This document shows, one piece after another, positions 1,419 to 15,945 of a DNA stretch of 64,000 nucleotides. The translations under genes were made by a program, and so were the position numbers. The first letter of the stretch is position 1, and each line of letters opens with the position of its first letter. Source of the DNA: an uncultured Nannocystaceae bacterium (GTDB lineage: Bacteria > Myxococcota_A > Polyangia > Nannocystales > Nannocystaceae); assembly GCA_964432695.1 (NCBI GenBank), contig CAYSPB010000001.1, positions 30,138 through 94,137 on the forward strand. Reading direction: 5' to 3'. The notes beneath the pieces are model-generated. The model was not told the DNA's origin. It searched no databases and worked only from the letters and a program-made list of their open reading frames with translations.

Positions 1419-2803
1419 CCGTGGGCCAGCTTGAGCGCCCCGCGCTGGGTGGCCTGAAGCAGCATTTCGCCGACCGCGGCCCAGCTGTAGGGCTGTGCAA
1501 AGGCGCGGAGCGATCCACCCGCGGGACGAGCTTGGGCCGTTTCGAGTGCGGACACGACAGTCTGGGCCAGCTGGGTCACGACGCTGGCCGGGTGTGGGTC
1601 GACCAGCAGCGATCCGAGGGTTGCGTCGTGTTCCTGCACCTGGCGAAGCAGCCAACCCAGGCCCGAGGAGTCCGTGCCCACCGGGATGGCCGCGCAAGAC
1701 ACCGCCTCGAGGATCGAGAGCGGAAACGCCTCGGGCACGAGCGCTGGAAGTACGGCGACGTGGGCGGGGCCCAGGTGCTCGGCGCATCCGACTCGATCCA
1801 GGACACCGACGAAGCTGATCGAGCCGGCGGCCATTCGCGCGCGCTCGGCGTAGTCTCGAGGGGCACCGTTGATGAAGTGCTCCACCGGGTGGATCAAGGC
1901 ATGTCGTCCGGAGTCGACGCCCAGCGTTCTCAGCGGGTCGAGGAAGTCGCTCAGGCTGCCGCGGGTGAGGGCGTCGGCGGCGGCCTGAAGTGCTTCGCCG
2001 TCCTTGCCGCCGCCCGCGAGCCGCAGCTTCGCGTTGGGCACGCTGCGCCGGATCATCGGCCAGGCCGCCAGCAGCGCGTGGATGCCCTTGTCGAGGGTGA
2101 GGCGCCCGGCGTAGGCCACGGTGGGCTCGGCCGCCTTGGTCTGGGGAGAGAATAGCGAGAGGTCGACGCCGGGCGAGACTTCGCACAGCCGCGACTCGTG
2201 CTTGGGGAACAGCTCGACGATGCGCTCGCGAACGGCGTCGTTCAACGCGACCACGGCCGCGGCCGAGTACAGCGCCGCATCGACGCGGGCGGCCAAGGCC
2301 GGGATTCTACGAACGCCGTAGTGCAGTCCGGTGCCGTGGGAGATCACGGCCCAGGCGGTCCCCACCTGCCGCGCGAGGCGGTCCGCGACCTGACACAGCA
2401 GCGCGGTGTGGTTGACCAGGACCACGTCGACGTCGCGCAGCCGCACGATGTCGCGGGAGATCGAGGTCATTCGCGTCACGTAGTCATCCATCTCCTGGGC
2501 GGACCAATCCGCGATGACTCGGCCTCGGGAGAGTTCGGCTCGCGGATACATCACGGGAATCTCGCGGTCGGAGACCGCGTGGATCGTGAGTCGTCCGCCC
2601 GTTGAGCGGAGGTACGCGGTGCTGTTGGTGCCGTGGTTGTGGTGGATGATCGACGCGTTCGGATGCGAGGCGCGAAGGTCCTCGTCGTGGCAAAGCACGT
2701 CGACCGTGTGTCCGTTGCGGGCCAGGGCCTCGGCGAGGTCGCGCGTGTAGATCGCGCTGCCGGAACCGGTGAGGCCGTAGCCGTGAAGGATGAGAACGTT
2801 CAT
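1415..2803 (-). CDS. GT4-family (GT-B, retaining) glycosyltransferase
   Basis: Real start is MNVLILHGYG (ATG 2803-2801), which overlaps the upstream stop as ATGA. Has an EX7E motif (PEAFPLSILEAVSCAAIPVGTD) and an N-terminal glycine-rich GSGSAIY motif. Confidence 0.85.
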   Translation of the reverse strand: MNVLILHGYGLTGSGSAIYTRDLAEALARNGHTVDVLCHDEDLRASHPNASIIHHNHGTNSTAYLRSTGGRLTIHAVSDREIPVMYPRAELSRGRVIADWSAQEMDDYVTRMTSISRDIVRLRDVDVVLVNHTALLCQVADRLARQVGTAWAVISHGTGLHYGVRRIPALAARVDAALYSAAAVVALNDAVRERIVELFPKHESRLCEVSPGVDLSLFSPQTKAAEPTVAYAGRLTLDKGIHALLAAWPMIRRSVPNAKLRLAGGGKDGEALQAAADALTRGSLSDFLDPLRTLGVDSGRHALIHPVEHFINGAPRDYAERARMAAGSISFVGVLDRVGCAEHLGPAHVAVLPALVPEAFPLSILEAVSCAAIPVGTDSSGLGWLLRQVQEHDATLGSLLVDPHPASVVTQLAQTVVSALETAQARPAGGSLRAFAQPYSWAAVGEMLLQATQRGALKLAHG

Positions 2804-4086
2804 GAGGCGGCTCGTGAAGGCGTGGTGGGAAAGGCGTGGAGCAGGGAGAACTCGGTGCGCATGCGGGTCACGTCGAAGTGCCGCTGCACGCGAGTTCGGG
2901 CGGCGCGGCCCCAAACCGCGCGCTGCTGAGGGTTCGTGGCCAGCGTTCGCAGGGCCTCGAGAAGCGCATTGGGATTCCGGCTCACCACGCCACCGGGCGC
3001 GCCGAGGGCCGGATCGGACACCATGCGGCGGACGTCCCCGACGTCGGTCGCAAGGACGGGGATGCCCCGCGCCATGGCTTCGAGCACCGCCAAGGGCTGG
3101 GCCTCCAGATCGCTGGTGAGCACCAGGACCGATGCGTTTGCCAGCGCGTCGGGCATGGCACGTGGCCCCCGCCAGGTCACGGTCGGACTGCGATCGAGCC
3201 GGGCGCGCAGCCGCGCCTCTTCGCACGGCGGGCAGTCGAATGGACCGACTAGCTCACCGCGGATCGTCACATCGCTCGATGCCGCGTCGACGAGGTCCAC
3301 GAAGATGTCGGGACGCTTGATGGGGTTGAGTCGGCCGAGGAAGACGGCGGTGAACCGCTCGGGCGGTGGCGTGGTGCTCGACGGTACTTCCACCCCGTTG
3401 GCGATCACGCGGGCGCGTGCCGGGTCGAGGCCGCGCGCGACCTGGTCGGCCATGCGCTCGGGATACAGCGCCGTGACCATGTCGGCGCCCCGGTAGAGGT
3501 CGTGGCGAATCTGCTCGAAGGTGCCGAGCACGCCTTCGGCCTCGTCCCGCCGGACCATGCGGCCGGACTCGAGAAATGGGCTGCCTGCGCGAAGTTCCTC
3601 CACGTACGAGGCGTGCTCCGACACGATGAGGGGGCAGCCGCGGCGTTGGGCGGCGAGCCCAATCGCGGAAGCCAGGCCCGCACCGATCGCATGCACGACG
3701 CCGCCGGCGGGGATGCGCGCGGCAACGATGCGTGACCAGTCACGGACGCTCTCTTGGCTGAAGTCCGAGGGCTCGTCGACGCCCTCGAGAGACTCTACGG
3801 ACGAGGGGAGCGTGTAGGCCCATGTGTCTTCTGGTGGCAGGGCACCGATTCGAAGCACGCGGGCCGGCATCGAGCCTTGGAGGAGTAGGTCCATCCAGGT
3901 GGAGATGCCGCCCAGGGTCACCGGGTAGGTGCCCTCGAGGACGATCGTGGGTGTGGGTCGAACGAAGCTCACCGGCCACGATCCCTGTAGCGTCGGCTTT
4001 GGAGGCGACCACGGATCGCTGCGATCGAAAACGGGACGCCCCCGCGAGGTCAGGGACCAGGCGGGGGCGGATCGGTGCGTTTCCAT
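2800..4086 (-). CDS. GT4-family glycosyltransferase with a PelF-like N-terminal motif
   Basis: N-terminus has LEGTYPVTLGGISTWMDLL, matching the EGTYP..GG.S.W motif of PelF/DUF3492-type GT4 enzymes (family recalled from memory). Has an EX7E motif (DLEAQPLAVLEAMARGIPVLATDVGD). Start is uncertain: ATG at 4086, or an in-frame GTG at 3972 that would remove an odd R/P/W-rich leader. Confidence 0.8.
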   Translation of the reverse strand: METHRSAPAWSLTSRGRPVFDRSDPWSPPKPTLQGSWPVSFVRPTPTIVLEGTYPVTLGGISTWMDLLLQGSMPARVLRIGALPPEDTWAYTLPSSVESLEGVDEPSDFSQESVRDWSRIVAARIPAGGVVHAIGAGLASAIGLAAQRRGCPLIVSEHASYVEELRAGSPFLESGRMVRRDEAEGVLGTFEQIRHDLYRGADMVTALYPERMADQVARGLDPARARVIANGVEVPSSTTPPPERFTAVFLGRLNPIKRPDIFVDLVDAASSDVTIRGELVGPFDCPPCEEARLRARLDRSPTVTWRGPRAMPDALANASVLVLTSDLEAQPLAVLEAMARGIPVLATDVGDVRRMVSDPALGAPGGVVSRNPNALLEALRTLATNPQQRAVWGRAARTRVQRHFDVTRMRTEFSLLHAFPTTPSRAAS

Positions 4087-4119: not shown

Positions 4120-5301
4120 TCATATCGCGACCGCGAGCAGCGAGAGGTCGTCGGGCGACTCGCGATCCTGCAGCAGCGTGCGTACCGTCAGGTCCACGAC
4201 GTTCTGCAGAGGTTCATCGAGATGGCTCGCAATGAGGTCCGCGAGCCGTGCTTCGCCGAACATCTCTCCATCGACCTCGAGCTCGGTGAGCCCATCGGTG
4301 AAGATGAACAAGCGGTCGCCCGGCTGAAGTGTGGTTTCGCCGTCCTCGAATGGCAGGCCGAGGCCCATGCCCACTGGAGGACCGCCACCGCCTGCAAGGC
4401 GGTCGAGGCTGCCGTCGGCGCGGAACAGCATCGGGGGTGGGTGTCCTCCACAGCAGTACCGCAGCACCCCGGTGCTCCGATCGAGGATGCAGTAGGCGAC
4501 GGTGAGATACGAATCCAGGCCGCGGCTCGAAATCTCATGATCGAGCATCGTGCAGACCTCGGCGGGCCCAGCGATGTCGAATATGTCGCCGACAGAGCGA
4601 CCTTCGAGCAGGGCCGATGCGATCGAGTAGGCCGGCGACAGCGACGTTGCGGCCCACGTCGCGACCAGTGACGCTGCGACCCCGTGTCCGCACACGTCGG
4701 CGACGAAGAAGGCGATCCTGTCGTCGTCGATACGCTGGACGTTGAGAAAGTCGCCTGCGAGTCCCTCGCAGGGTTGATAGGCATACGCTGCAGAAACGCG
4801 CGGAAGCTCGACGGGGTTGGGTGGCAGCAGACCCGCCTGAATCCGGCTCGCACACTCGATCTCTGCTCGCATGCGAGCGTTGGCGGTGAGAAGCTCGCGT
4901 TCGGCTTGCCGAAGACGCGCCAGTCGGCTCACGCGCGTACGGATCTCGGGGATGCGCAGGGGCTTGGGAATGTAGTCGTCGGCACCGCGGCGCAGGCCCG
5001 CTTGAATGTCCTGCGTCGAGCCGAGGGCGCTCGCGAGCAGAATGCGGGGGGCATCGGACCCGATGTTGTCTACGATGTGCGACACCAGGTCGAGTCCGCT
5101 GATGCCCGGCATCATGATGTCGAGCACCGCAACGTCGAACTCGGCGGCTCGTTCGTCGAGGATGGCCTTGGCTTCTTTGCCGTCTTTTGCGACTTCGACG
5201 TCGTAGCCGACCGAGGCCAGCGCCCGGGTGAGGATTTGACGAATGGTCGCCTCATCGTCGGCGATGAGCAGGCGACCGGCAGGCTTGGGGTCGTTGGGCA
5301 T
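4120..5301 (-). CDS. Response-regulator receiver fused to a PP2C/SpoIIE-type serine phosphatase (RsbU-like)
   Basis: N-terminal REC domain (LLIADDE..., VAVLDIMMPGISG, IPKP). C-terminal PP2C motifs are FFVADVCGHGVAASL, LFIFTDGLTE and DDLSLLAVAI. Confidence 0.9.
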   Translation of the reverse strand: MPNDPKPAGRLLIADDEATIRQILTRALASVGYDVEVAKDGKEAKAILDERAAEFDVAVLDIMMPGISGLDLVSHIVDNIGSDAPRILLASALGSTQDIQAGLRRGADDYIPKPLRIPEIRTRVSRLARLRQAERELLTANARMRAEIECASRIQAGLLPPNPVELPRVSAAYAYQPCEGLAGDFLNVQRIDDDRIAFFVADVCGHGVAASLVATWAATSLSPAYSIASALLEGRSVGDIFDIAGPAEVCTMLDHEISSRGLDSYLTVAYCILDRSTGVLRYCCGGHPPPMLFRADGSLDRLAGGGGPPVGMGLGLPFEDGETTLQPGDRLFIFTDGLTELEVDGEMFGEARLADLIASHLDEPLQNVVDLTVRTLLQDRESPDDLSLLAVAI

Positions 5302-5308: not shown

Positions 5309-5758
5309 CTACGGAAGCGCCTTCTCGAGGATGACCACTTTTCCCAGCGGCTCGATGGTCTCGCGGTAGGAGATCGAGTCGGTCAAACTCTGCATCAAGA
5401 ACAACCCGCGCCCGGACTCCCCGTCCAGATCCGGGACGACGTTCTCGTCGGCCTGGCCGAACGCCTTGTCCGGGTTGGTGTCGTAGACGTAGATCCGCAC
5501 CATCGACTCGGCGCTCTCGAAGACGACCCGCGCGTCCCGTCCGTCCTGGTCGTGGGCGTGCCGAATGACGTTGGAAACGCATTCGGTCAGCGCGAGCATG
5601 AGCCCGAAGCCGACCTCGCCCTCCGCGTCGATGTCGAGCTGTTCCAAGAAGGCGCGGAACTTGTCCCGCACCATTGGGATCGATGCGTATTCGCTGGGGT
5701 ATTCGATCTCTACGCGAATCGCATCATATTCGGGGTCGACCGCACAGTTTGCTGCCAT
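5309..5758 (-). CDS. RsbW/SpoIIAB-like serine protein kinase (anti-sigma-type HATPase)
   Basis: 149 aa. Has an N-box-like ALTECVSNVIRHA and a G-box GESGRGLFLMQSLTD. Lies 7 nt upstream of the REC-PP2C gene. Confidence 0.8.
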   Translation of the reverse strand: MAANCAVDPEYDAIRVEIEYPSEYASIPMVRDKFRAFLEQLDIDAEGEVGFGLMLALTECVSNVIRHAHDQDGRDARVVFESAESMVRIYVYDTNPDKAFGQADENVVPDLDGESGRGLFLMQSLTDSISYRETIEPLGKVVILEKALP

Positions 5759-5818
5759 GAACGTTCCTTCGTGTCTCCTGGTTCTTCGGCCATCAGGACG
5801 CGGCGAACCAGGCTCAGA

Positions 5819-7807
5819 TCAGGCCGCTTCGCCATCTGTTTCGGGCTGCGGCAGGCTCCGCGACCGGCGGCGGATGTACCAAATGCCAGCGAGCACGAGC
5901 GACAGCACCCCGCCGAAGAACACGGGAAGGGGGACGGAACGCCATGCGGCCTGCGTTCTAGCGATCATGCGATCGAGCTCGGGCGTCGAACCGCTTGCGG
6001 AGGCGGCTTCGAGCCTGCCCTTCGCGTCGAACGCGAGCGAGAACCCCGGCGTTCCGAACACGGACACGAGGGCGCGGTGCGCAGCATCCCAATCGTCGGT
6101 GAGGACGACGAGCCCCGCCGCTCGCTCCTTGCTGAAGCGCCTCAGCCAAATGGCACCGACCGGTTCGAACGAGTCGGTCGGGGTGGGGACTTCGAGGGTG
6201 TCGTCGAGCCGCGCTGCGACCTGGGACCAGGCGACGCCGTCCTCCACCACGCCGAACATCATGAGGTGGCCTTCGGTGGGGGCGGGGTCGCTCGCGCTTG
6301 AAAGCTCGAACCGCGGCGCAGTCAGAGAGTCCGTACCGATGCGCATCGCCACGCTCGCCGCAAATCCGAGCGCGCCGTGGGGGCGGTCGTCGGCCAGCAC
6401 CACGTTCGTGGGGTGCTTGAGTCCCGAGCCGTTGAGGGGCGCCGGAAACGACTCGAGGTCGAGCACGGTGGGCTCGATCGGGGCGAGGTGCCAGCGGGAG
6501 CGCGGCTTGATCGTGATGAAGTCGGTTTCGCGCTCGGTGCATTCCTCATCGTCGTTGGAGCCGCCGCCGCCCTCGCTTTCGAACTTGAGCACGAAGTGAC
6601 GCAGAGGCCGGTTGGCGCCGTCTCGGTTGCCGGCTCGACCTCCAGGGAGCTCGAACACCGTCTCGTGAACACCTGGCTCCAGGCGAACGCGACCGAGCAC
6701 TTCGTCGCCGAGCGAGACCACCAGGACAGACCCTTCTGCGACGCCGGTCGGAACCGAGTAGGCGAGCGTGAGCGTGCTGTCCTCGTCGATGAGAATCGCG
6801 GGCGGTCGGTCGAAGTAGAACGTCTTCGGTACGCCCTTGACCAACGGGAAGAGGACATCCTGCAGGCCGAGGTCGGAGAAATGGACCGTCGTTGCAAGCC
6901 ACGGCGAGTTGCTTTCGGGCGGTGGCTCGCTGGCAAAGCGGCGCTGCGTCCCGACGCCGAGCTGGCTGCGACTGAAGATCCATCGCGCGACCAGGGCGGC
7001 AGCATCCGCGGAGTCGGCCTCGACGGTGAAGACCGACCAGGCGTCGTTCTCGGGGTGTGCCCGGACTGACAGCGAGGGGTTCGGGTCGGCGCTGGTGAGG
7101 TCGATGTCGACGAGGTGGCCCTTCGGCAGCGGAGCATCGGGGTCGAGCGGCTCGATGCGTACCGGGTTGGTGCCCGCATGCTTGCCGAGCGCGCCTGCGA
7201 GCTCCAAGAGCGCTCGCCTGTGCTCGTCGTCGGCGACGGCCATGCGCATGGCGACGCGCCGCAAGTCGCGTGCGCGCTGGGTGATGAGCGGGTAGGGGAA
7301 CTCGCCCAAGTTGTGCGCGGGCGGGCGCATGCTGTACTTCACCCGAATCGAAGAGTCTTCGTGCAACACCACGGTGCGCTCGTCGGGTTCGCAGTCCTCC
7401 TCGTGGGCCACGAACGCGACCTGGATGTGCAGGCCTTGCGGTGTAGGGGACTCGGGCGGAATTTCGACCATCAGCCGTCGAAACCGAGCATCTTCGCTTG
7501 GAAGCGCTTCGCGGTGTCGCTCCTTGCCATTGACCGTCACGACGAGTGCACCGGCGGTCTTGTTCGTGGCCTGCGCCAGCTTCGGCACGCTGTAGATCAC
7601 TTCTACCGACGAGCCGCGCTGCATCTCCCAGTCGCTCGGCAGCTCGTACCAGGCTTCGAACAGCGGCTCGTCGGCGGTCAGCATTGCCGCCGGGTACCCC
7701 AGGTCGCGGAAGATGCCGACGTCCTCGTACACGTCGCCTTCGGCGTGGGCCAGCCCGGCGCCAAAGAGCACCCAGACCCCCAGCATCCACGCGATGAGGC
7801 GGGTCAC
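5819..7807 (-). CDS. BcsB-like periplasmic polysaccharide-synthase accessory subunit (signal peptide, duplicated domain, C-terminal TM anchor)
   Basis: A GTG at 7807-7805 overlaps the upstream TGA as GTGA and gives the signal peptide VTRLIAWMLGVWVLFGAGLAHAEG. Two internal repeats share the pattern DLG ... YS.P ... V..NG/LG: FRDLGYP..VIYSVPKL..LVVTVNGKE and FSDLGLQ..LAYSVPTG..LVVSLGDEV. This is the pattern I associate with the two halves of BcsB. A single C-terminal TM (VPLPVFFGGVLSLVLAGIWYI) is followed by a basic tail. Family assignment is from memory only. Confidence 0.55.
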   Translation of the reverse strand: MTRLIAWMLGVWVLFGAGLAHAEGDVYEDVGIFRDLGYPAAMLTADEPLFEAWYELPSDWEMQRGSSVEVIYSVPKLAQATNKTAGALVVTVNGKERHREALPSEDARFRRLMVEIPPESPTPQGLHIQVAFVAHEEDCEPDERTVVLHEDSSIRVKYSMRPPAHNLGEFPYPLITQRARDLRRVAMRMAVADDEHRRALLELAGALGKHAGTNPVRIEPLDPDAPLPKGHLVDIDLTSADPNPSLSVRAHPENDAWSVFTVEADSADAAALVARWIFSRSQLGVGTQRRFASEPPPESNSPWLATTVHFSDLGLQDVLFPLVKGVPKTFYFDRPPAILIDEDSTLTLAYSVPTGVAEGSVLVVSLGDEVLGRVRLEPGVHETVFELPGGRAGNRDGANRPLRHFVLKFESEGGGGSNDDEECTERETDFITIKPRSRWHLAPIEPTVLDLESFPAPLNGSGLKHPTNVVLADDRPHGALGFAASVAMRIGTDSLTAPRFELSSASDPAPTEGHLMMFGVVEDGVAWSQVAARLDDTLEVPTPTDSFEPVGAIWLRRFSKERAAGLVVLTDDWDAAHRALVSVFGTPGFSLAFDAKGRLEAASASGSTPELDRMIARTQAAWRSVPLPVFFGGVLSLVLAGIWYIRRRSRSLPQPETDGEAA

Positions 7808-9795
7808 CGGCCCTTGCGCTTCTCTTCCCAAACCCGCGCCATGACCTCGCGCTCTTCTTCGACCGTACGGTGGATGTGGAACACCACGATCTCCTCGGTC
7901 TCGAAGTACACCGACATGTTGGTGTAGGTCTCCATGTACTCGCGACACCATGATTCCAGCGCAACGTTGTCATCGGCCCGAGCTTCAAAAGCCTGAACCG
8001 ATCGGTAGCGGACGTTGGGCGCGGTCTTCTCGACGAACAGGAACACATGCGCGGTTGGGACCGTCGTAGCGCTGTTCTGCGGGTCCCACTTGTACGACTC
8101 CACGTCGAACTTCTCGAGGAAGTCCCCACGCGGGATCGACCAGCCTTCGCCTTCGACGTGCGTGGACAGCTCGGGGTGCGCAACCATGGTCCACTCGCCT
8201 GCGACGAACTCCTCCTTGATCTGATAGGCGGCGCCCAGGGTCGTTTCGGGCTCCATGCGCGCGTCGACCTCGCTGAACGAGGGGGGCGCGAAGATCAACA
8301 CGCCGATGACACCCGCGATCCCCGGGAGCTGTCGAAGCGGGCGCAGCGTGAGCACCCGGAACATCCGTCCCATCGGCATCGAGACCATGTCGTACAGGAC
8401 GTCGAAACCAAGTCCGACCACGACGGAGGCCAACGGCACGAGCAGCGCCATCACCCCGTCGGTGGACAGCATGGGCAGCCCGGTTTTGGGCAGCGAGAAC
8501 AGGGACCACGCGAAGAGGAATGCGAGGCAGGGGACGTCGATGCGGAAGTCCCGGCCGGCTTTCATCTTCATCTGGCGCACGCGGAAGAGCGTGGCCAGGG
8601 CGAAGGCCCCTGCGGCGAGCATGAGGGGTGCCTGCGCGATCTTGGGATCGGGCGCGCGCGGAGCGAGCGTCTCTCGGACCACGTCGAGGGCACCGTGTCC
8701 GAGGCCGAACCCGAGCACTTCGGCGATGAGGCCCCAACCCAGCGGCACCAGCGTGGCGACGATGCCGTAGCCAGCACACCGCGCGAGCATGCCGACGCCG
8801 CCCTTGCGAAACGACAGTTCACCCGTGGCGGCTGCGGCGAGGGCTGCCAAGCCGAGCGCGAGGCTGAGCGGGTGCACCGAGGCGAGCAGGACCAGCAGGC
8901 CCAGCGAGATGCGCTTGGGCCACGGTCCCTCTTGGCTGCCACTGAGCGATGCGACGAGCATGATGAAGAAGGGCGCTGCGAACGTGTAGGCGTGCAGTGC
9001 GGCTTCGGACTCCAGCACTGGAAGCAGCGGTCCGGACGTCGCAAAAGCACACAGCGCCGCGGCGATGGTGGCCCCACCGCTCCTTCGCGTGGGTGCGCGC
9101 AGGCGCACCGACAGGGCGTACACGGCCGTGGTCGTCAGCAAGGACCACGTGGTTCCCAGCACGCCCCACAGCAACATCTGGTCGACGCGCGAGAGCGTGT
9201 AGACGACCAGCGCAAACGCATGTGCACCCAGCGGGTAATAGCCGGATGCGAGCACCTCACCAGCGCCCAAGCGTTTGAGCCGCATGATGTTCTCGTGTGC
9301 GCGGGAGGAGTCCGGGTACGGATAGTCCAAGAAGGCGCTGTAGCGAACGAACAGCAGCGCACCGAGGATGAGCAGGAACGGTGCGTGATCGATGAGCCCA
9401 CCGACGATGCCCGCGGTGCGGTCGCCCAGTTTGGACCGGATCTTCGCCAGCGCCGCGTCCCGGATGCGGACCAGCTCGGCGCGCCCGCCGTCCAGAAGGT
9501 CGTAAACGACGATCTGAAGGCGGTCGCTGCCACGGAGCTCTCCTTCGGCAGGCTTCTTTCTACGGCTCAGTCCGACGCCGATGATGATGAGCGAACCGAT
9601 GAGCGAAACCCCGTCGAAGAGGTTCAGCAGCGTCAGCACATGCACCAACGCCACCAAGACCAGTACCAGCCGTCCCGCTTGCTGCGGCAAGGTGGCTTTG
9701 GTCAGCTCGCGCTCTTTTCCGAGCACGATTCCGGGTACCACGAAGAGGAGCAGTCCTCCCCAAAGCAGTACGCGGATGATTCCGTTGGCGATCAC
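7804..9795 (-). CDS. Polytopic inner-membrane protein (about 13-15 TM) with a roughly 150-aa C-terminal soluble domain; function unknown
   Basis: 663-aa ORF with a GTG start. Hydrophobic throughout until about residue 500. G/C-rich third positions support this frame over the Arg-rich alternatives. It is the first gene of the minus-strand operon and is translationally coupled to the BcsB-like gene. Confidence 0.75.
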   Translation of the reverse strand: MIANGIIRVLLWGGLLLFVVPGIVLGKERELTKATLPQQAGRLVLVLVALVHVLTLLNLFDGVSLIGSLIIIGVGLSRRKKPAEGELRGSDRLQIVVYDLLDGGRAELVRIRDAALAKIRSKLGDRTAGIVGGLIDHAPFLLILGALLFVRYSAFLDYPYPDSSRAHENIMRLKRLGAGEVLASGYYPLGAHAFALVVYTLSRVDQMLLWGVLGTTWSLLTTTAVYALSVRLRAPTRRSGGATIAAALCAFATSGPLLPVLESEAALHAYTFAAPFFIMLVASLSGSQEGPWPKRISLGLLVLLASVHPLSLALGLAALAAAATGELSFRKGGVGMLARCAGYGIVATLVPLGWGLIAEVLGFGLGHGALDVVRETLAPRAPDPKIAQAPLMLAAGAFALATLFRVRQMKMKAGRDFRIDVPCLAFLFAWSLFSLPKTGLPMLSTDGVMALLVPLASVVVGLGFDVLYDMVSMPMGRMFRVLTLRPLRQLPGIAGVIGVLIFAPPSFSEVDARMEPETTLGAAYQIKEEFVAGEWTMVAHPELSTHVEGEGWSIPRGDFLEKFDVESYKWDPQNSATTVPTAHVFLFVEKTAPNVRYRSVQAFEARADDNVALESWCREYMETYTNMSVYFETEEIVVFHIHRTVEEEREVMARVWEEKRKGR

Positions 9796-9955
9796 GGACG
9801 AGGGTTCCGAATCGATCCATCGGCTTTTCCCGGGGGTACCGCGAGCCCAGATCTGAAACCTTCAAGACTCGAATCGGGCCGCGGGATCTCGAAACGACCC
9901 CTTGCCGGTCGGCTGTCCGATCCACACGAGAGGTTCTCCCCAGGAGGACACCACC

Positions 9956-11803
9956 ATGTGCGGCATCGTTGGATACATCGGATTTCGGAACGGCGTGACC
10001 GAGTGCCTCAAGGGCCTCGAGCGCCTCGAGTACCGCGGCTATGACTCGTCGGGCGTTGCGGCCATCGACATGAGCGGTCAGCTCGAGGTCAATCGAGCGG
10101 TCGGCGGCGTCGCAAACCTCACCGAGAAGGTCGAGCAAGCCCAGCAGCTCGGTCGCACGGCGATTGGCCACACCCGCTGGGCCACGCATGGCGAGCCGGC
10201 GGAGCACAACGCCCACCCTCATGTGGACTGCACCGGCCAGTTCGCGGTCGTGCATAACGGCATCATCGAGAACCACGCTGCGCTGCGCGCCGAGCTGAAG
10301 CTCAAGGGGCATCAGTTCCAATCCGACACCGACACCGAGGTCATCGCGCACCTCGTCGAGGAGAACTACGACGGGGACCTGCTTGAGGCGGTCAAGGTCT
10401 CGGCCGAGCGTCTGCGTGGGACCTACGGTTTTGCGGTCGTGCACGCCACCGACGACGACGAGTCGGAGATCGTCACCACTCGCCGTGGCAGTCCGCTCGT
10501 GGTTGGGCTCGGTGATGACGAGGCGTTCCTCGCTTCGGACGTGGTCGCGGTTCTCAACCGCACCCGTCAGGTCCTCTTCTTGGAGGATGGGGACTTCGCG
10601 GTGCTCAAGCGCAACTCGGTCGAGCTGTTCGACCAGAGCGGCGCAAAGGTTTCGCGCGAGATCACCGAGGTGGAATGGTCGGCCGAAGCGGCGGAGCGCG
10701 GGGGCTACGAGCACTTCATGCGCAAGGAGATCGGCGAGCAGCCCAGCACCCTCGAGCGGATCTGTACCGGCCGCGTCAGCACCGACGAAGCCGGTCGCCG
10801 GAGTGTCGACCTGCCCGAGATGAAGGCGCTGTTCGACGACGCCGAGCCGCCCACCCGCATGGCGGCGGCATCTTGCGGGACCTCGTATCACGCCAGCCTC
10901 GTGGCCAAGTGGTACATGGAGCGACTCGCGAAGATCCCGACGGACGTCTATATCGCCTCGGAGTTTCGGTACGAAGAACCGCTGCTCGAGCAGACCGACG
11001 CCTTCTTGTCGGTCAGCCAGTCCGGCGAAACCGCGGACACGCTCGCCTCGCTCGACCTCGCACGCGGGACCGAGCTCAAGTCGCTGGCGATCTGCAACGT
11101 CATCGGGAGCCGGCTTTGTCGCGAAGCCGATGCGACCATCTTGACGCAGGCGGGTCCGGAGGTTGGGGTCGCATCGACCAAGGCGTTCTCGTCGCAGGTC
11201 ATCGCCGGCCTGCTCGTTGCGCTCGACCTCGGCCTTCGCAAGGGCACCGTCACCCCGGATCAGGCGGACACGGTTCTCGCCGACCTCGAGAAGCTGCCCG
11301 ACTATGTCCGCGCGGTCCTCGACCAGGAGGCGCACATCGAAGCCATTGCCAAGAAGCACGCGAACGCCCGAGCGTTCCTGTTCCTCGGCCGCGGTGTGCA
11401 GGTGCCCGTTGCGCTGGAGGGTGCGCTCAAGCTCAAGGAAATCTCCTACACCCCGGCCGAAGGCGGGGCGGCCGGAGAGATCAAGCACGGGCCCATCGCC
11501 CTCATCGACCCTGAGGTGAGCACCATCTTCCTGGCCACGCCCTCGCCCACGCACGACAAGCTCATGGCGAACATATCGGCGATTGCTGCGCGCAAAGGTC
11601 CGATCATCGCCGTGGCCGTCGAGGGCACCCAAAACCTCGAAACGCTGGCTGAAGACGTCATTACTGTGCCGCACGCCAGCGCAGAGCTCCAGCCGGTCGT
11701 GAACACGGTCGCGCTGCAGCTGCTCAGCTATCACGTCGCGCGGGCACTCGACCGCGAGATCGACAAGCCTCGCAACCTCGCCAAGAGCGTCACGGTAGAG
11801 TAG
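9956..11803 (+). CDS. glmS: Glutamine--fructose-6-phosphate aminotransferase
   Basis: Starts MCGIVGYIG (Cys2 nucleophile) with the SD sequence CAGGAGGA 8 nt upstream. Has SIS-domain motifs (SQSGETADT) and the C-terminal KPRNLAKSVTVE. 615 aa. Confidence 0.97.
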   Translation: MCGIVGYIGFRNGVTECLKGLERLEYRGYDSSGVAAIDMSGQLEVNRAVGGVANLTEKVEQAQQLGRTAIGHTRWATHGEPAEHNAHPHVDCTGQFAVVHNGIIENHAALRAELKLKGHQFQSDTDTEVIAHLVEENYDGDLLEAVKVSAERLRGTYGFAVVHATDDDESEIVTTRRGSPLVVGLGDDEAFLASDVVAVLNRTRQVLFLEDGDFAVLKRNSVELFDQSGAKVSREITEVEWSAEAAERGGYEHFMRKEIGEQPSTLERICTGRVSTDEAGRRSVDLPEMKALFDDAEPPTRMAAASCGTSYHASLVAKWYMERLAKIPTDVYIASEFRYEEPLLEQTDAFLSVSQSGETADTLASLDLARGTELKSLAICNVIGSRLCREADATILTQAGPEVGVASTKAFSSQVIAGLLVALDLGLRKGTVTPDQADTVLADLEKLPDYVRAVLDQEAHIEAIAKKHANARAFLFLGRGVQVPVALEGALKLKEISYTPAEGGAAGEIKHGPIALIDPEVSTIFLATPSPTHDKLMANISAIAARKGPIIAVAVEGTQNLETLAEDVITVPHASAELQPVVNTVALQLLSYHVARALDREIDKPRNLAKSVTVE

Positions 11804-11808
11804 TCGCC

Positions 11809-12753
11809 ATGTACATCATCACAGGCGGCGCAGGCTTCATCGGTTCGCAGCTCGTCCGCGACTTGCTCGCGGAAGGCGAGCGAGTGGTGGTGCTGGACAA
11901 CTTTTCCACGGGGCAGCGGTCGAATCTCGCAGGGCTCGACACCGAGCGGCTCGCGACCATCGAGACGAACATTGCCGATGGCCTCTGGCCGGGCATGTCC
12001 CAAGTGGACCCCTCGTGGGGCAAGCCCAAAGCGATCGTGCACCTTGCGGCCCAGGTCGCGGTGGTGGCTTCGGTCGCCAACCCGCTCGACGATGTGCGGC
12101 TCAACTACGCCACCACGATGCACGTCCTCGAGTACGCGCGCTTCTCGGGGGCACCGCGCATCGTGTTCGCCTCTTCGGCGGCGACGTACGGCAACCTCGA
12201 TACCGTCCCGCTCACCGAAGAGATGGCGCGATGGCCCGTGAGCCCCTACGGCATCAACAAGTTCGGGTCGGAGATGTGCCTTCGGTACTACGCCGAAGTC
12301 CACGGCGTGCCCACGGCGTCGCTTCGATTCTTCAACGTCTACGGACCGCGTCAGGACCCCAGCAACCCATACTCGGGCGTCATCTCGATCTTCATGCAGC
12401 GCGCCCTCGACGGGGAGCGCATCACGATCTTCGGGGATGGCGAGCAGACCCGCGACTTCGTCTACGTCGGCGACGTGTCCCAGGCGATTCGGCGTGCGGC
12501 CTCCGAAGACTTCGGCGGCGACGTGTTCAACGTCGGGACTTCCACCGAAACCACGGTCAACCAGCTCGCGCAGACCATTGCGCGACAGTGCAACAGCACG
12601 TCCGAGATCCTCCACGCGCCTGCACGCAAGGGCGAGATTCTGCGTTCCAGCGCCAACATCTCCGCCGCCCGCGAAAAGCTCGGCTTCGATCCCAAGATGA
12701 GCCTCGAATCGGGCCTGCAGCACACGTTGGACTGGTTTCGCAGCACGCGCTGA
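11809..12753 (+). CDS. NAD-dependent SDR epimerase/dehydratase, probably a UDP-hexose/UDP-HexNAc 4-epimerase
   Basis: Has the Rossmann motif ITGGAGFIGS and a YGINK catalytic Y-x3-K. 314 aa, 5 nt after the glmS stop. Substrate is not determinable from sequence alone. Confidence 0.85.
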   Translation: MYIITGGAGFIGSQLVRDLLAEGERVVVLDNFSTGQRSNLAGLDTERLATIETNIADGLWPGMSQVDPSWGKPKAIVHLAAQVAVVASVANPLDDVRLNYATTMHVLEYARFSGAPRIVFASSAATYGNLDTVPLTEEMARWPVSPYGINKFGSEMCLRYYAEVHGVPTASLRFFNVYGPRQDPSNPYSGVISIFMQRALDGERITIFGDGEQTRDFVYVGDVSQAIRRAASEDFGGDVFNVGTSTETTVNQLAQTIARQCNSTSEILHAPARKGEILRSSANISAAREKLGFDPKMSLESGLQHTLDWFRSTR

Positions 12754-12768
12754 CCCAGATGATCTTCG

Positions 12769-14394
12769 ATGCCTCCCGACGGCACGATCGGCGAACTCGA
12801 TGAACGTCAGCGGGCGTTCGAAGAGCGGCGCGCAGAGACCCGGGAGAAGGTGATCGAAAAAGTCGGGTGGCCGCTCGATGCCTGGGCGGTCGCCGCGACG
12901 CTGGAGAGCTTCGGTCTGCGAGACGTCGATGCCGAGGAGCAGTTCGGCTCCGGGAGCATCTTCCACCTCGCAGAGACCATCTACGAGGAGATTTACAGCG
13001 GGCCTTCGGAGGCGACCGAGCTCAAGGCGATGGAGTCCCTCACGCCGTGGGCCCGCCTCAAGTCGTTCGTCGTGCACTACTGCAAGGGCACGTTGTTCGC
13101 GATGCCCATGGCGACGCAGATCGCCGCGGTACTCATTCTTCGCTACTCGCTGTGGGCGTGGCTCGACTTCTCGAACCTCGAAGCGACGCTGGTGGCGCTG
13201 GGCACGATCGCGAGTTTCGTCGTCACGGGGGGCTTCATTCAGGCGATCGGCCGCGAGGGCACCTTCTACTCCGGGCAGAAGAACTGGAAGCTGCTCGAGG
13301 AGGTCTGTCGTCTCATCATCCTGACGGGCACCGGATTGATGCTCGCGGTCGTGATCGGCTTCTGCGTGTTCAACCTGTTCGTGCCGGTGCTCGCGTGGCG
13401 CTACGCGGTGGTCTCGCTGACCTACTTCGTGCTGCTGTCACCGATGTGGTTGTTTCTCGGCGTGTTGTTCATGCTTCAGGACAACCTCGCGATCGTCATC
13501 ACGACGTCCGTCGGCACCGTCGCCGTGCACCTGATGATGACGTACACCTCGTTCGGGATCTACGCTGCGCACTGGGTCGGCTTGGCCGTGACGAACACGG
13601 TTGCCTGTGGCTACGGCGCGTTCCGCATTCGCAAGCGCCGCAAAGAGCTCGAGAAGCGCTTCGAGAAATCGCTGCTGCCTCGTTCTTCGGTGCTGCTGTA
13701 CATCGTGCTGCCGTTCCTCGTGTACGGGGTGCTGTACTTTACCTTCCTCAATGCCGACCGGATCATCGGCTGGTCGGCGGCGCGGGGGTACTTGCCGCTG
13801 GTGATCTGGTTTCGCACCCCGTACGAGCTGGGCATGGACTGGGCGCTGCTCAGCCTCGTGTTCACGATCGCCGTCCTCGAGTATTCGGTCAACGAGTTCA
13901 GCCGCACGATCATCCCGGTGCAAGAGTCGACGAAGGCTGCCGACTACAAGGAGCACAATCGACACTATCAGCGCTTCTACAACCGGCAGCGCATCATGCT
14001 GGCCGTTGTCGCGGTGATCAGCATCGCCATCACCTACTTTGGCGTGCGGTCGCTGGAGCGCTTCGATCACATCAAGGAGGTGCGTGACTTCTTCGCCAGC
14101 CCGATCACCTATGAGGTGTTCTGGTATGCGGCCATTTCGTACTCCTTGCTCGCGCTGGGCCTACTCAACTCACTGTTCTTTTTCTCGTTGGCCCGCCCGA
14201 ACGTCGTGGTGGCCTGCATTTGGCCGGCGTTGTTGACGAATGTGGTGGTCGGCTACGTCGCCAGTCGCATGATCTCTTTCGAGTACAGCGTGCTCGGCTT
14301 GCTCGCCGGGAGTCTGGTGTTCGCGATTCTCACCTCCCGCCGCGCCGCGACGCTCTTCCGCACGCTCGACTTCTACTACTACTCCGCTTTCTGA
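12769..14394 (+). CDS. Polytopic membrane protein (about 12 TM); candidate polysaccharide exporter from context (PelG/flippase-like role is a guess)
   Basis: 541 aa. A roughly 90-aa cytoplasmic N-terminus is followed by hydrophobic segments to the C-terminus. Sits between the epimerase and the GAF-HD-GYP gene. I recognised no catalytic motif. Confidence 0.6.
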   Translation: MPPDGTIGELDERQRAFEERRAETREKVIEKVGWPLDAWAVAATLESFGLRDVDAEEQFGSGSIFHLAETIYEEIYSGPSEATELKAMESLTPWARLKSFVVHYCKGTLFAMPMATQIAAVLILRYSLWAWLDFSNLEATLVALGTIASFVVTGGFIQAIGREGTFYSGQKNWKLLEEVCRLIILTGTGLMLAVVIGFCVFNLFVPVLAWRYAVVSLTYFVLLSPMWLFLGVLFMLQDNLAIVITTSVGTVAVHLMMTYTSFGIYAAHWVGLAVTNTVACGYGAFRIRKRRKELEKRFEKSLLPRSSVLLYIVLPFLVYGVLYFTFLNADRIIGWSAARGYLPLVIWFRTPYELGMDWALLSLVFTIAVLEYSVNEFSRTIIPVQESTKAADYKEHNRHYQRFYNRQRIMLAVVAVISIAITYFGVRSLERFDHIKEVRDFFASPITYEVFWYAAISYSLLALGLLNSLFFFSLARPNVVVACIWPALLTNVVVGYVASRMISFEYSVLGLLAGSLVFAILTSRRAATLFRTLDFYYYSAF

Positions 14395-14403
14395 GTTCCG
14401 CCA

Positions 14404-15942
14404 ATGAGCTTCTTCCAAGCCGTTGTTCCTCTGTCCGAGAGCGTCGCTCGCCTGCTGACCAAGCAGCGCGGCGAGCCTTCGTTCGAGGACGTGCTCGAAG
14501 CGTTTCGCAAGGAGCTCGACGTGCTCGCGATCGGTTGGTACCGACGCAACCGTGGCTCATATGAGCTGGTCGTCGGCCTGCAGCCCGAGCCTGAACCCGA
14601 GGAGGCCGGGCCGAAGGAAGTTCCCGGTGGGCGGTTCTTTGCCCGCCGAGAGCCGCCCCCGATGCACGAGGAGAACGACCAGCACCCGCTGATCGATGGC
14701 GATGCGGAGCTGCGGCTCCAGCTGCCGGGCAGCGACGACTATCTGGGTCTCAACCTCGTCGGCGCCCTTGCGCGACCGCACCTTGTCACCCCGTTTGCGG
14801 GTGGGCTGCTGGTGATGGGCAGCTTCGCCTCACGCTCGCTGGCCAAGAAGGCCAAGCAGCGCTGGGACGAGAGCGCCGCAACGCTGCAGATCATCGGCAG
14901 GAGTGCGCTCGACCGTGCCGACCACCAAAGTGAAGTGACTCGACTCGAGGGTCGACTGCGCACCGCGAATCGAACCATTGCCTCCGCGCTCGACATGGGC
15001 GCTCTGTTCAAAGCGTTGTTGTCTGTAGCCGCCCGGGCGAGCCGTCACCAAGGGGCCTTCATCGGACGACGCGATGGCGACGGTTTCGTGCTTCGGACCC
15101 AGTACGGCCTCGACGACGTCGTTGGTGGCCTGGTCGGGCAACGTGTCGACGGCACGCTGTTCGACCTCGAGATGGTGATGGACGAGCCGATCATCGTCCC
15201 CAAGGACCTCTCGGAGCTGACGGGGATGGGTGTGGATTCGCTGCTGGCCTTTCCCATCCTCAACGACGGAGAGCTGGCCGGCGTGCTCGGACTGGTGAAC
15301 TCCAAGCGCAAGGCGGGCGTGCAAGACGGCGACTACGGCCTATTGGCGTCGTTCACCGAGCAGATCTCACGGGTGATGGCCCGCGAGATCGAGGTCGTCG
15401 CGTTCGGGAACACCTACTTCGACACGCTGCAGGCGCTGTGTCGCGCCCTCGACTTGGCGCGCGGTTGTGAAGGGCACCACGAGCGCGTCTCCAACCTCGC
15501 GGCTCAGATGGCTGCCGCCGACGGTCTCGACGAACGCAGCGTCGATTTGCTGCGCCGCGCGGGTTTGGTGCACGACGTCGGACTCGTGCAAGCCGCCGGC
15601 GGTTCTCGCGACGTGCAGACCGAGTTCGGTCACCCCACGCTCGGCGCACTTCTGGCTGGCCCGCTGCGCGACGGGGCGGAGCTCGCAGCGCTCATTCGCG
15701 AGCACCACGAGACCGACGACGGCTTCGGGTTTCCCGACGCGCTCGAGCAAGACAACCTGGCGCCGCTCGGGCGGTACCTCGCTTTGTCCGAGTACATCGT
15801 CGAACGCATGACGGGCAACCAGATTTCCGAAGGGCTCGATGCCGACGCGATGCGGGCCGAGCTTCTGCGAGCCGATGCACGCTTCAGCAAGCATCTGCGC
15901 GAGGTGGCAGCCAAGCAGCTGCGTGCACTCAAGGTGGCCTGA
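14404..15942 (+). CDS. GAF-domain protein with a C-terminal variant HD-GYP domain (c-di-GMP phosphodiesterase or receptor)
   Basis: HD-GYP metal-ligand pattern is present: HHERV ... LVHDVGL ... GHPTLGALL ... EHHETDDGFGFPDAL. The usual HDxGK lysine is Leu and GYP reads GFP. A central GAF-like region is present (AFPILNDGELAGVLGLVN). Confidence 0.75.
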   Translation: MSFFQAVVPLSESVARLLTKQRGEPSFEDVLEAFRKELDVLAIGWYRRNRGSYELVVGLQPEPEPEEAGPKEVPGGRFFARREPPPMHEENDQHPLIDGDAELRLQLPGSDDYLGLNLVGALARPHLVTPFAGGLLVMGSFASRSLAKKAKQRWDESAATLQIIGRSALDRADHQSEVTRLEGRLRTANRTIASALDMGALFKALLSVAARASRHQGAFIGRRDGDGFVLRTQYGLDDVVGGLVGQRVDGTLFDLEMVMDEPIIVPKDLSELTGMGVDSLLAFPILNDGELAGVLGLVNSKRKAGVQDGDYGLLASFTEQISRVMAREIEVVAFGNTYFDTLQALCRALDLARGCEGHHERVSNLAAQMAAADGLDERSVDLLRRAGLVHDVGLVQAAGGSRDVQTEFGHPTLGALLAGPLRDGAELAALIREHHETDDGFGFPDALEQDNLAPLGRYLALSEYIVERMTGNQISEGLDADAMRAELLRADARFSKHLREVAAKQLRALKVA

Positions 15943-15945
15943 CCC

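Follow-up and report, generated by a model that had tools for sequence, protein, structure and literature searches.

A BcsB-like protein and a predicted GT-C-fold glycosyltransferase encoded by overlapping genes in a putative Pel-related polysaccharide locus of a Nannocystaceae bacterium

Results

Gene content of the locus

The window, which is the whole 64,000-nt stretch analysed here from an uncultured Nannocystaceae bacterium, carries a series of minus-strand genes that begins with one for a SypA-like STAS-domain protein of the anti-sigma antagonist type (243–578; Pfam STAS, 84.5 bits) and one for a 263-aa sugar-1-phosphate uridylyltransferase similar to GlmU's N-terminal half (591–1382). 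The NCBIfam GlmU match of the latter (259.9 bits) covers model positions 3–236 only, and Pfam NTP_transf_3 is matched as well. The gene of a second GT4 glycosyltransferase, of 462 aa (1415–2803; Pfam Glyco_trans_4_4 and Glycos_transf_1), overlaps the gene upstream of it by 4 nt, as checked at start and stop. The upstream gene (2800–4086) encodes a short PelF-like GT4 glycosyltransferase (NCBIfam PelF, 128.5 bits against a cut-off of 100) with partial DUF3492 and GT1 matches in Pfam; its true start may be internal, a relative being called at 390 aa. On the same strand lie a fusion of a response-regulator receiver with a PP2C (SpoIIE) phosphatase (4120–5301; Pfam Response_reg 83.5 and SpoIIE 141.5 bits) and an RsbW/SpoIIAB-type serine kinase of partner-switching type (5309–5758; Pfam HATPase_c_2, 60.2 bits, with NCBIfam RsbW/SpoIIAB matches too).

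On the plus strand, a divergent GlmS, or glutamine-fructose-6-phosphate aminotransferase (9902–11803; Pfam SIS and GATase_6), whose start may lie later than 9902 in view of a relative called at 615 aa, is followed by a GalE-type UDP-hexose (or HexNAc) 4-epimerase (11809–12753; Pfam Epimerase, 181.6 bits), for which the NCBIfam GalE score of 177 bits lies under the cut-off of 262.3. The next gene (12769–14394) encodes a 541-aa polytopic membrane protein, which gave no match in a direct Pfam and NCBIfam search and is called PelG-like by its identity to proteins of two other loci, L010 (31%, E = 8e-82) and L014 (42%), each with a weak PelG match, that of L010 in Pfam. Beyond it lie a GAF and HD(-GYP-type) protein that may sense c-di-GMP or be a phosphodiesterase for it (14404–15942; Pfam GAF, HD_5 and HD; NCBIfam c-di-GMP phosphodiesterase NosR family, E = 2e-13), and a full-length PelF-like GT4 of 564 aa with DUF3492 and GT1 domains (15946–17640; Pfam DUF3492, 131 bits; NCBIfam PelF, 169.4 bits against the same cut-off of 100).

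None of the window ORFs that were scanned showed a GT2, BcsA or PilZ domain. The window yielded neither an initiating phosphoglycosyl transferase nor a polyprenyl-phosphate sugar synthase (a GT2 of the GtrB/ArnC/PpgS type), bcsZ and bcsC are absent, and no equivalent of PelA, PelB, PelC or PelD, and no PelE, was recognised in it. Taken as a whole, the gene content suggests a Pel-related exopolysaccharide cluster whose chemistry would point to HexNAc.

The overlapping gene pair

Between these two groups, the genes of a 662-aa BcsB-like periplasmic protein (5819–7807) and a 663-aa polytopic membrane protein (7804–9795) both lie on the minus strand, within the span given in the first-pass annotation. 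The start and stop check shows that the stop codon TGA of the 663-aa gene and the start codon GTG of the 662-aa gene share the sequence GTGA (7804–7807, minus strand), and a Shine-Dalgarno-like AAGGG stretch is located just 5' of it. The 4-nt overlap is retained in a sister MAG at a dS of about 0.7, and the identical overlap occurs in genuine bcsA-bcsB pairs, where it is seen in plasmid operons. Judging from this arrangement, the two genes are translationally coupled, and it is the gene overlap alone that suggests a partnership between their products. The 662-aa gene occupies an operon-internal position, with the 663-aa gene on one side and the regulatory genes on the other.

The 662-aa protein is a BcsB homologue, as seen in its HMM match and its topology. 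Pfam BcsB (PF03170) matches it with 65.8 bits (E = 3.3e-18; cut-off 21), residues 84–381 being aligned with profile positions 56–378 of 606. Its N-terminus, MTRLIAWMLGVWVLFGAGLAHA followed by EGD, is a Sec signal with an AXA cleavage site (AHA), and its sole other hydrophobic segment (residues 624–645), the C-terminal membrane anchor, is followed by a basic tail, RRRSRS. In an hhalign comparison with BcsB, the common motifs 'C ... DS(S/T)I ... DL..FP.P' were found, with a weak profile-profile probability of 14%; the pairwise comparison with E. coli BcsB gave no significance, and the structure prediction for this protein had a pLDDT of 36.5. Relative to the sister MAG, the gene is under purifying selection (dN/dS 0.109) and evolves at about double the rate of its neighbours (0.03–0.07).

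The 663-aa protein is predicted to cross the membrane with about 14 helices and to end in a soluble domain of 155 aa on the periplasmic side. Pfam and NCBIfam searches gave no match for it, and hence no GT2 or PilZ domain. The AF2 model (pLDDT 87.3, pTM 0.89) identifies it as a GT-C-fold glycosyltransferase of an unnamed family: the Foldseek PDB matches at ranks 1–21 are GT-C enzymes throughout, with a probability of 1.00, and the matches include STT3, PglB, AglB, ArnT, AftA, DPY19 and ALG9. The Foldseek scores do not separate the oligosaccharyltransferases from ArnT, AftA and DPY19. At the sequence level, the sole PDB match of the family profile is a marginal one to TMEM260, a protein O-mannosyltransferase (E = 0.002), and PMT_2 and DUF6541 are matched by 4 and 3 of 69 relatives, respectively.

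The family amounts to about 200 sequence clusters (198 relatives were found) and conserves D/E61, D102, R151, K174, YPxGxH (187–192), D205 and H308. Position 61 is acidic in all 69 aligned sequences, and R151, K174, YPxGxH, D205 and H308 are 78–100% conserved. The strictly conserved polar residues are located in loops predicted to be periplasmic, and a hairpin with a conserved YDxLDG motif, in which D102 is acidic in 99%, is predicted to be cytoplasmic. None of the conserved residues was assigned as the canonical GT-C catalytic Asp, whose usual place is the first periplasmic loop. The conserved residues, together with purifying selection on the gene (dN/dS 0.056 relative to the sister MAG), can be read as signs of an active enzyme.

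Much of the first-pass annotation is borne out by these results, namely the BcsB-like character of the 662-aa protein, its signal peptide and single anchor with a basic tail, the GTGA coupling, the count of 13–15 membrane segments with a C-terminal domain of about 150 aa in a partner that is not a GT2/PilZ synthase, and the PelF-like GT4 enzymes at the same locus. The internal duplication it described stands in part: the pattern 'DLG ... YS.P ... V..G' is present in both halves of the 662-aa protein, but the BLASTP comparison of the halves was not significant (E = 0.2).

Neighbourhood of the family in other genomes

The 663-aa family was found with a PelF-like GT4, a PelG-like membrane protein or both in 10 informative loci, and this neighbourhood is conserved. 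The GT-C gene adjoins PelG-like and/or PelF-like genes in L001, L003, L004, L005, L006/L007, L010, L013, L014 and L015, and is directly adjacent to the PelG-like gene in L010 and L014. Most of the 10 loci also carry a GAF/HD protein, a GlmU-like uridylyltransferase and a STAS/kinase/PP2C partner switch; in L005, L015 and L016, all three enzyme parts of the switch are fused in a SypE-like manner. In L010, a small GT2 gene stands beside a DUF2304 gene, which we take to be the PpgS/Rv3632 arrangement, and GH114 and CE4 genes are present. A gene for DUF2194, the PelA domain of Gram-positives (PMC7890745), immediately precedes the GT-C gene in L006 and is located downstream of it in L008. A large protein of about 1150–1200 aa with weak IgGFc_binding, DUF7507 and FG-GAP matches is encoded in L001, L003, L005 and L013; within the range examined it was not found in L006, L010 and L015, where the GT-C and PelF/PelG-like genes are kept. 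Among the examined loci of the GT-C family, the BcsB-like gene was found in this window and one sister genome only, and at none of the others.

Discussion

The locus shares features with several known systems. As in BcsA-BcsB of Rhodobacter sphaeroides and E. coli, the protein matched by the BcsB HMM begins with a signal peptide, is largely periplasmic and is held in the membrane by one C-terminal anchor, and its gene lies directly downstream of that of a polytopic partner with a 4-nt overlap. However, the partner there has a GT2 fold and PilZ instead of a GT-C fold, bcsZ and bcsC are missing here, proteobacterial BcsB has about 750–810 aa compared with 662, and the sugar is glucose, whereas the chemistry of this locus would point to HexNAc.

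With the Pel systems (pelABCDEFG of Pseudomonas aeruginosa and pelDEA_DAFG of Bacillus cereus), the locus shares PelF-type GT4 enzymes with DUF3492, a PelG-like protein, a UDP-HexNAc epimerase (PelX-like) and a GAF-containing regulator, and related loci carry DUF2194 (the PelA_DA domain), CE4 and GH114 genes. PelA, PelB, PelC, PelD and PelE are, in contrast, unrecognised here, and GAF is joined to HD(-GYP) instead of a degenerate GGDEF domain. Beyond Pel, the window has two extra GT4 enzymes, the GT-C enzyme, the BcsB-like protein and the partner switch. A PelDEFG complex is cited in PMC10553843.

In ArnC/ArnT, CsbB/GtcA/YfhO, GtrABC and mycobacterial PpgS/Rv3632/Rv3779, too, a polymer of the cell envelope is modified outside the cytoplasm by a GT-C enzyme. 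Unlike these three-component systems of periplasmic glycosylation, the window lacks both a GtrA-type flippase and a GT2 that makes polyprenyl-phosphate sugars, and its GT-C protein has no above-threshold match to any of their named families. In the mycobacterial arabinosyltransferases EmbA/B/C and AftD, the GT-C membrane domain is accompanied by periplasmic carbohydrate-binding modules, by which the acceptor glycan is held. AftA is among the top structural matches; the binding domain is fused in EmbA/B/C and AftD, whereas here it would be a separate BcsB-type polypeptide. The combination of a STAS protein, an RsbW-like kinase and a receiver-PP2C phosphatase inside a polysaccharide locus resembles SypA/SypE of the Vibrio fischeri syp locus, although kinase and phosphatase are separate genes here and fused in SypE. 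The syp locus belongs to the Wzx/Wzy type; PelF/PelG and a GT-C protein of this family are not known from it.

The explanation we favour, to which we give somewhat less than an even chance as a whole, is that a Pel-related HexNAc polymer is the substrate of the GT-C protein on the periplasmic side, with the BcsB-like protein holding the glycan. The pair would form the periplasm-facing module of an N-acetylhexosamine-rich Pel-related exopolysaccharide locus, for which GlmS, the GlmU-like uridylyltransferase and the GalE-like epimerase would supply UDP-GlcNAc and UDP-GalNAc. To our knowledge, all characterised GT-C enzymes use polyprenyl-phosphate carrier donors. By analogy, the GT-C protein may take a sugar (or glycan) off such a carrier and transfer it on the periplasmic side of the inner membrane; this presumed donor has no visible source nearby, because neither a GT2 sugar synthase nor a phosphoglycosyl transferase was found in the window. 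The acceptor would most likely be the product of the PelF-like GT4 enzymes, a polymer that would be exported via the PelG-like protein. BcsB holds the glycan for BcsA, as fused carbohydrate-binding modules do in the GT-C enzymes EmbC and AftD. In like manner, the BcsB-like protein, produced in a fixed ratio to the GT-C protein through the GTGA overlap and tethered by its C-terminal helix, might keep the acceptor glycan in or close to the active site of the GT-C protein by its BcsB-type carbohydrate-binding domains, and the output would be controlled by the partner switch of STAS protein, RsbW-like kinase and receiver-PP2C phosphatase together with the GAF-HD protein.

Block transfer is an unlikely alternative, in which an oligosaccharide is assembled on polyprenyl diphosphate by the GT4 enzymes, flipped by the PelG-like (MOP/flippase-like) protein and then polymerised or ligated by the GT-C protein (like Wzy, WaaL or PglB), while the BcsB-like protein keeps hold of the growing chain. 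The presence of STT3, PglB and AglB among the top structural matches, of three GT4 enzymes without a processive GT2, and of GT-C genes directly beside PelG-like genes in L010 and L014 is consistent with it, but those structural scores also fit ArnT, AftA and DPY19, and the initiating enzyme is missing from the window. Moreover, Pel synthesis is regarded as synthase-dependent and free of a lipid carrier.

It is quite improbable that the GT-C protein O-glycosylates proteins in the manner of PMT/TMEM260, with a secreted protein of the locus, such as the 1150–1200-aa one, as its target and the BcsB-like protein as an unrelated periplasmic lectin-like addition. The TMEM260 and PMT_2 matches and the recurrence of the large protein at four loci argue for it, whereas the marginal E value of the former, the three loci at which the large protein is missing and the embedding of the GT-C gene in strings of PelG/PelF genes argue against it. 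The first-pass annotation had also reckoned with a known GT-C family of unrelated role; the fold is indeed predicted to be GT-C, yet the family is unnamed, and an unrelated role does not fit, given that PelF/PelG-like genes are its constant neighbours.

The confinement of the BcsB-like gene to one lineage and its faster evolution would also fit an origin by recent insertion behind the GT-C gene, with no functional connection and an incidental overlap, which we consider very improbable, as the gene is intact and under purifying selection, retains the GTGA overlap at the divergence given above and lies inside the operon.

Least probable of all is the model of the first-pass annotation, in which the 663-aa protein is a non-catalytic channel threading the polymer of cytosolic PelF-like GT4 enzymes beneath a periplasmic BcsB-like crown: the usual BcsB partner is channel-forming, the catalytic Asp is unassigned and the YDxLDG hairpin could dock a cytosolic enzyme, but the structural matches are enzymes throughout with no polysaccharide channel among them, the strictly conserved polar residues face the predicted periplasm, and the PelG-like protein, the presumed Pel exporter, is already at the locus. 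The designation of the 663-aa protein as an unknown channel was rejected on the Foldseek matches and the weak links to TMEM260, PMT_2 and DUF6541.

The BcsB-like gene is lineage-specific, and it is dispensable for the core function of the GT-C family because it is absent from all other loci of that family examined. The new synthase-dependent export arrangement once proposed is therefore not a general design of the family but at most a local elaboration.

Gene Pair and Operon Organization

The G+C content of the window is about 65%, and its nearest public relative is the Myxococcota metagenome-assembled genome (MAG) GCA_039024335.1, hereafter the sister MAG, in which the proteins are 86–96% identical and the gene order is collinear. 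Codon-position G+C and domain searches delimit two divergent operons, one on the minus strand from 9795 to 243 and the other on the plus strand from 9902 to 17640. The long minus-strand ORFs at 9560–11734 and 11731–13077 were rejected as genes, since they run antisense to the GlmS and epimerase genes and their G+C by codon position is not that of coding sequence.

The gene of the 663-residue protein (7804–9795, −) stops at TGA, and the gene of the 662-residue protein (5819–7807, −) begins at GTG, the four nucleotides GTGA being common to both; AAGGG is located just 5′ of the GTG start. The sister MAG has the identical overlap despite a dS of about 0.7 between the two genomes, and both genes are under purifying selection in this comparison, with dN/dS values of 0.056 for the 663-residue protein and 0.109 for the 662-residue protein. 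Both are real genes. A second 4-nt overlap, ATGA at 2800–2803, joins the gene of the short PelF-like GT4 enzyme (2800–4086, −) to the next GT4 gene, so that the operon makes use of translational coupling at more than one junction.

The 662-Residue BcsB-like Protein

The 662-residue protein carries an N-terminal Sec signal peptide ending in AHA and one further hydrophobic helix at residues 624–645, which is followed by the basic tail RRRSRS. This is the topology of BcsB, namely a secreted, periplasmic protein with a single C-terminal membrane helix. The Pfam profile BcsB (PF03170) matches the protein at 65.8 bits (E = 3.3e-18), where the curated cut-off is 21 bits. The match spans residues 84–381, collinear with profile positions 56–378 of 606, and covers only about 1.5 of the two tandem units of BcsB, each consisting of a carbohydrate-binding domain (CBD) and a flavodoxin-like domain.

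Further comparisons gave weak results. BLASTP against E. coli BcsB gave no significant similarity (E = 0.54), and a shallow hhalign comparison of a two-sequence profile with a profile of seven proteobacterial BcsB proteins gave an E value of 0.0019 but a probability of 14%. The latter alignment pairs residues 307–525 with the first of the CBD/flavodoxin-like units of BcsB, where the motifs 'L.L.Y..SP', a Cys, and 'DL..FP.P' are matched. On the basis of the profile match and the predicted topology, we accept the 662-residue protein as a homologue of BcsB with a BcsB-like topology. The first-pass annotation was right in its observation of a BcsB-like protein coupled through GTGA to a polytopic protein. 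It had also proposed an internal duplication; the repeated pattern is present in both halves, but a self-BLASTP comparison was non-significant (E = 0.2). The AlphaFold2 single-sequence model was unusable (pLDDT 36.5), and the two-unit architecture is putative.

BcsB is regarded as an obligate partner of BcsA, a GT2 cellulose synthase with a PilZ domain whose gene lies beside that of BcsB. The 662-residue protein departs from this defining partnership, as its coupled partner has a predicted GT-C fold without a GT2 or PilZ domain. The earlier statement that no GT2 synthase stands beside the BcsB-like gene holds for all the window ORFs scanned, none of which showed a GT2, BcsA, or PilZ domain.

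The distribution of the BcsB-like protein appears narrow. In tblastn searches it was present in the lineage of the sister MAG only, and a pattern-based search of genome contigs, with patterns drawn from the signal peptide, likewise returned only the sister MAG; two metagenome scans found none. For both proteins of the pair, a sequence search of the PDB gave nothing meaningful and tblastn against plasmids gave no match. Word-indexed homologue searches, using either single proteins or a 69-sequence profile, returned near-identical proteins only.

The 663-Residue Protein and Its Family

The 663-residue protein has no match in Pfam, NCBIfam, or the PDB sequence search. An exhaustive HMMER search, counted at E values up to 0.001, yielded 198 relatives, all of them unnamed and almost exclusively from metagenomes. 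Most of them are 640–690 residues long and align end to end, and the loci that encode them have G+C contents of 32% to 73%. The protein belongs to no named family.

The AlphaFold2 model, for which 69 of the relatives served as the alignment input, has a pLDDT of 87.3 and a pTM of 0.89. In the Foldseek comparison of this model with the PDB, ranks 1–21 were all GT-C glycosyltransferases (probability 1.00, E = 2e-5 to 3e-2), namely STT3, DPY19, AftA, ArnT, PglB, AglB, ALG9, and ALG3, and matches below rank 21 were noise. The highest TM-score was 0.55, against ArnT. The predicted structure of the 663-residue protein therefore has the GT-C membrane fold. At the level of profiles, the family gave a match of marginal scale to the O-mannosyltransferase TMEM260 (E = 0.002); PMT_2 was matched by 4 of the 69 relatives (best E = 3.6e-6) and DUF6541 by 3 of 69.

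The positive-inside rule, together with the alignment to TMEM260, predicts an N-terminus of three extra helices and a cytoplasmic helical hairpin that carries YDxLDG, then about 11 helices that form the GT-C core, and lastly a periplasmic C-terminal domain. In the 69-sequence alignment, position 61 is acidic in 100% and D102 in 99% of the sequences, R151 is kept in 91% and K174 in 96%, and the motif Y187-P188-x-G190-x-H192 is conserved at 78–100%. D205 is conserved at about 86–88% and H308 at 93%. About 77% of the family has an acidic residue at positions 154 and 165; the protein in the window has D158 and D163. GT-C enzymes have a conserved acidic catalytic residue in the first extracytoplasmic loop, for which the acidic positions 61, 154, 158, 163, 165, and 205 are candidates. 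The hairpin with the YDxLDG element is helical and connects membrane helices 3 and 4 (residues 89–136, about 9390–9530, −); its D99 is acidic in 81% of the family. A hairpin predicted to be cytoplasmic by the positive-inside rule is unusual for a GT-C enzyme.

Pel-related Character of the Locus

On the minus strand, the genes 3′ of the pair encode an RsbW-type kinase (5309–5758, HATPase_c_2 60.2 bits), a phosphatase with a receiver domain and a PP2C domain (4120–5301, Response_reg and SpoIIE), and the short PelF-like GT4 enzyme (NCBIfam PelF 128.5 bits, cut-off 100). The second GT4 gene follows at the 4-nt overlap, and 3′ of the GT4 genes are those of a uridylyltransferase like the N-terminal half of GlmU (260 bits) and a STAS protein (243–578, Pfam STAS 84.5 bits). 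The divergent plus-strand operon encodes GlmS, a GalE-type epimerase, a PelG-like membrane protein of 541 residues (12769–14394), a protein with a GAF domain and an HD domain of the HD-GYP type (HD/HD_5), and a full-length PelF-like enzyme (15946–17640; NCBIfam PelF 169.4 bits, cut-off 100; DUF3492 131 bits). The UDP-GlcNAc/UDP-GalNAc supply line of the locus is complete.

The scores of the two PelF-like enzymes identify GT4 enzymes of the PelF type, for which the N-terminal DUF3492 is characteristic. The 541-residue protein has no direct PelG match in Pfam or NCBIfam, and its assignment as PelG-like comes from homology, at E = 8e-82, to proteins that themselves match the Pfam PelG profile weakly. 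The locus is a Pel-related system, as judged from the PelF-type GT4 enzymes, the PelG-like protein, and the nucleotide-sugar supply line. PelA (deacetylase/hydrolase), PelB and PelC (outer-membrane export), PelD, and PelE were not recognised among the window ORFs scanned; the locus continues past the left edge of the window. As for PelD, a membrane protein with GAF and degenerate GGDEF domains, the sole GAF protein has an HD/HD_5 domain and no GGDEF domain.

The remainder of the window encodes functions outside polysaccharide synthesis, such as CarD, Ser/Thr kinases, UvrB, and a MATE transporter, and no RNA genes were found in it. Just outside the polysaccharide locus, at 20874–24845 (−), two adjacent ORFs of 711 and 595 residues each show a marginal match to Planctomycete cytochrome c (PSCyt1).

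Loci of Relatives

The gene context was read for twelve members of the GT-C family. The genes recurrent with the GT-C gene are those of the long PelF-like enzyme, the short PelF-like GT4, the second GT4, the GlmU-like transferase, the PelG-like protein, the GAF/HD protein, and the STAS protein with its kinase and phosphatase, which are often fused in the manner of SypE. The GT-C protein is a conserved extra component. The gene adjoining it differs among the loci: it is the transferase gene in L003, the CofD gene in L005, a DUF2194 gene, located upstream, in L006/L007, the PelG-like gene in L010 and L014, and in L013 an epimerase gene, followed by the PelG-like, HD, and PelF genes. The DUF2194 protein of L006, which occupies the neighbouring position, was considered as a divergent BcsB-like protein and rejected, since it shows no similarity.

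DUF2194 is a domain of Gram-positive PelA (PMC7890745). Genes for DUF2194, CE4, and GH114 proteins occur in the loci of the relatives only and are absent from the window ORFs scanned. Two family members, P0015 (1379 residues, L008 620–4759) and P0018 (1264 residues), carry a C-terminal HlyD-type periplasmic adaptor (HlyD_3, Biotin_lipoyl_2), and two DUF2194 genes lie 3′ of the HlyD-fused genes in L008 and L009. This fusion is another case of the GT-C family being joined to a periplasm-spanning partner.

L010 additionally carries CE4, GH114, and MurJ-like genes, together with a gene for a GT2 protein of 237 residues and then a DUF2304 gene (11659–12782, in a locus of 32% G+C) near the GT-C gene. 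This pair resembles PpgS/Rv3632 of mycobacteria, the source of polyprenyl-phosphate-GalNAc for a GT-C enzyme there, and would be in keeping with a lipid-linked donor for the present GT-C family.

The Myxococcota-like loci share a protein of about 1150–1216 residues (L001 19920–21992, beyond the left edge of the window; L003 3947–8154; L005 14116–18179; L013 19081–21929) and a small protein of 147–210 residues. The large protein has weak IgGFc_binding, DUF7507, and FG-GAP matches and no others; candidate roles for it are those of a surface protein, a target of glycosylation, and a component of export.

The STAS protein, the HATPase_c_2 serine kinase, and the PP2C phosphatase encoded together in the window form a partner switch embedded in the polysaccharide operon, similar to SypA/SypE of Vibrio fischeri. 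A single fused protein, like SypE, unites the three enzyme parts in L005, L015, and L016. As the STAS gene is located directly 5′ of the GT-C gene in L005, L012, and L016 (partner-switch genes at 5408–7331, 69–386, and 204–2186, respectively), the switch may have the GT-C protein as its target. Possibly, the YDxLDG hairpin, predicted to be cytoplasmic, is where the STAS protein acts directly.

Discussion

To our knowledge, all characterised GT-C enzymes use polyprenyl-phosphate-linked donors and act on the outside of the membrane. In the most economical model, accordingly, the GT-C enzyme would act on the exported polymer in the periplasm, decorating, extending, or attaching it, and the BcsB-like protein would supply glycan binding in trans. 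Models for glycan binding beside a glycosyltransferase are BcsB over BcsA, where BcsB binds the nascent beta-1,4-glucan, and EmbC and AftD with their fused carbohydrate-binding modules. A weak point is that the window contains no donor-forming GT2 for the GT-C enzyme.

The same fold could instead serve block transfer or polymerisation, to which we give lower weight than to action on an exported polymer. Protein O-glycosylation, towards which the marginal TMEM260 match would point, is also given lower weight; the GT-C gene recurs with PelF- and PelG-like genes. A passive channel receives lower weight as well, and the proposal in the first-pass annotation of an unknown channel with no synthase is replaced by that of a GT-C enzyme with a BcsB-like partner in a Pel-type locus, given the GT-C structures at Foldseek ranks 1–21. 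That the BcsB-like gene is an unconnected insertion would agree with its narrow distribution, and it too is weighted lower; the GTGA overlap is kept in the sister MAG. The BcsB-like protein is a lineage-specific addition coupled to the GT-C enzyme, and the proposed contact between the two is based on the overlap of their genes.

We put forward, tentatively and as a reading that has somewhat less than an even chance of being correct, that this undescribed GT-C family is a core subunit of a widespread PelF/PelG-type machinery, acting extracytoplasmically from lipid-linked donors, and that a BcsB-type subunit was recruited to it in this Myxococcota lineage. Searches of the literature turned up neither a BcsB-like/GT-C pair nor a pel locus described as containing a GT-C enzyme. 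An unassigned transmembrane protein has been reported in pel-like operons of sulfate reducers (PMC10553843).

If the GT-C reading is true, part of the assembly or decoration of the Pel-related polymer happens extracytoplasmically, from lipid-linked donors. For Pel, we know of no account of the passage of the PelF product through the membrane or of any part that a lipid carrier has in it. A GT-C enzyme encoded with PelF- and PelG-like genes in genomes of 32% to 73% G+C is a testable candidate for a periplasmic step dependent on a lipid donor. Likewise, we know of no target of SypA, and the position of the STAS gene in the three related loci suggests one for a SypA-like switch. The BcsB-like/GT-C pair, if true, would be the first case in which a homologue of BcsB serves a partner other than a GT2 enzyme. 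With such a link to a GT-C enzyme, the glycan-guiding role of BcsB would prove transferable to another class of membrane glycosyltransferase, and BcsB would then be a portable periplasmic module for glycan handling.
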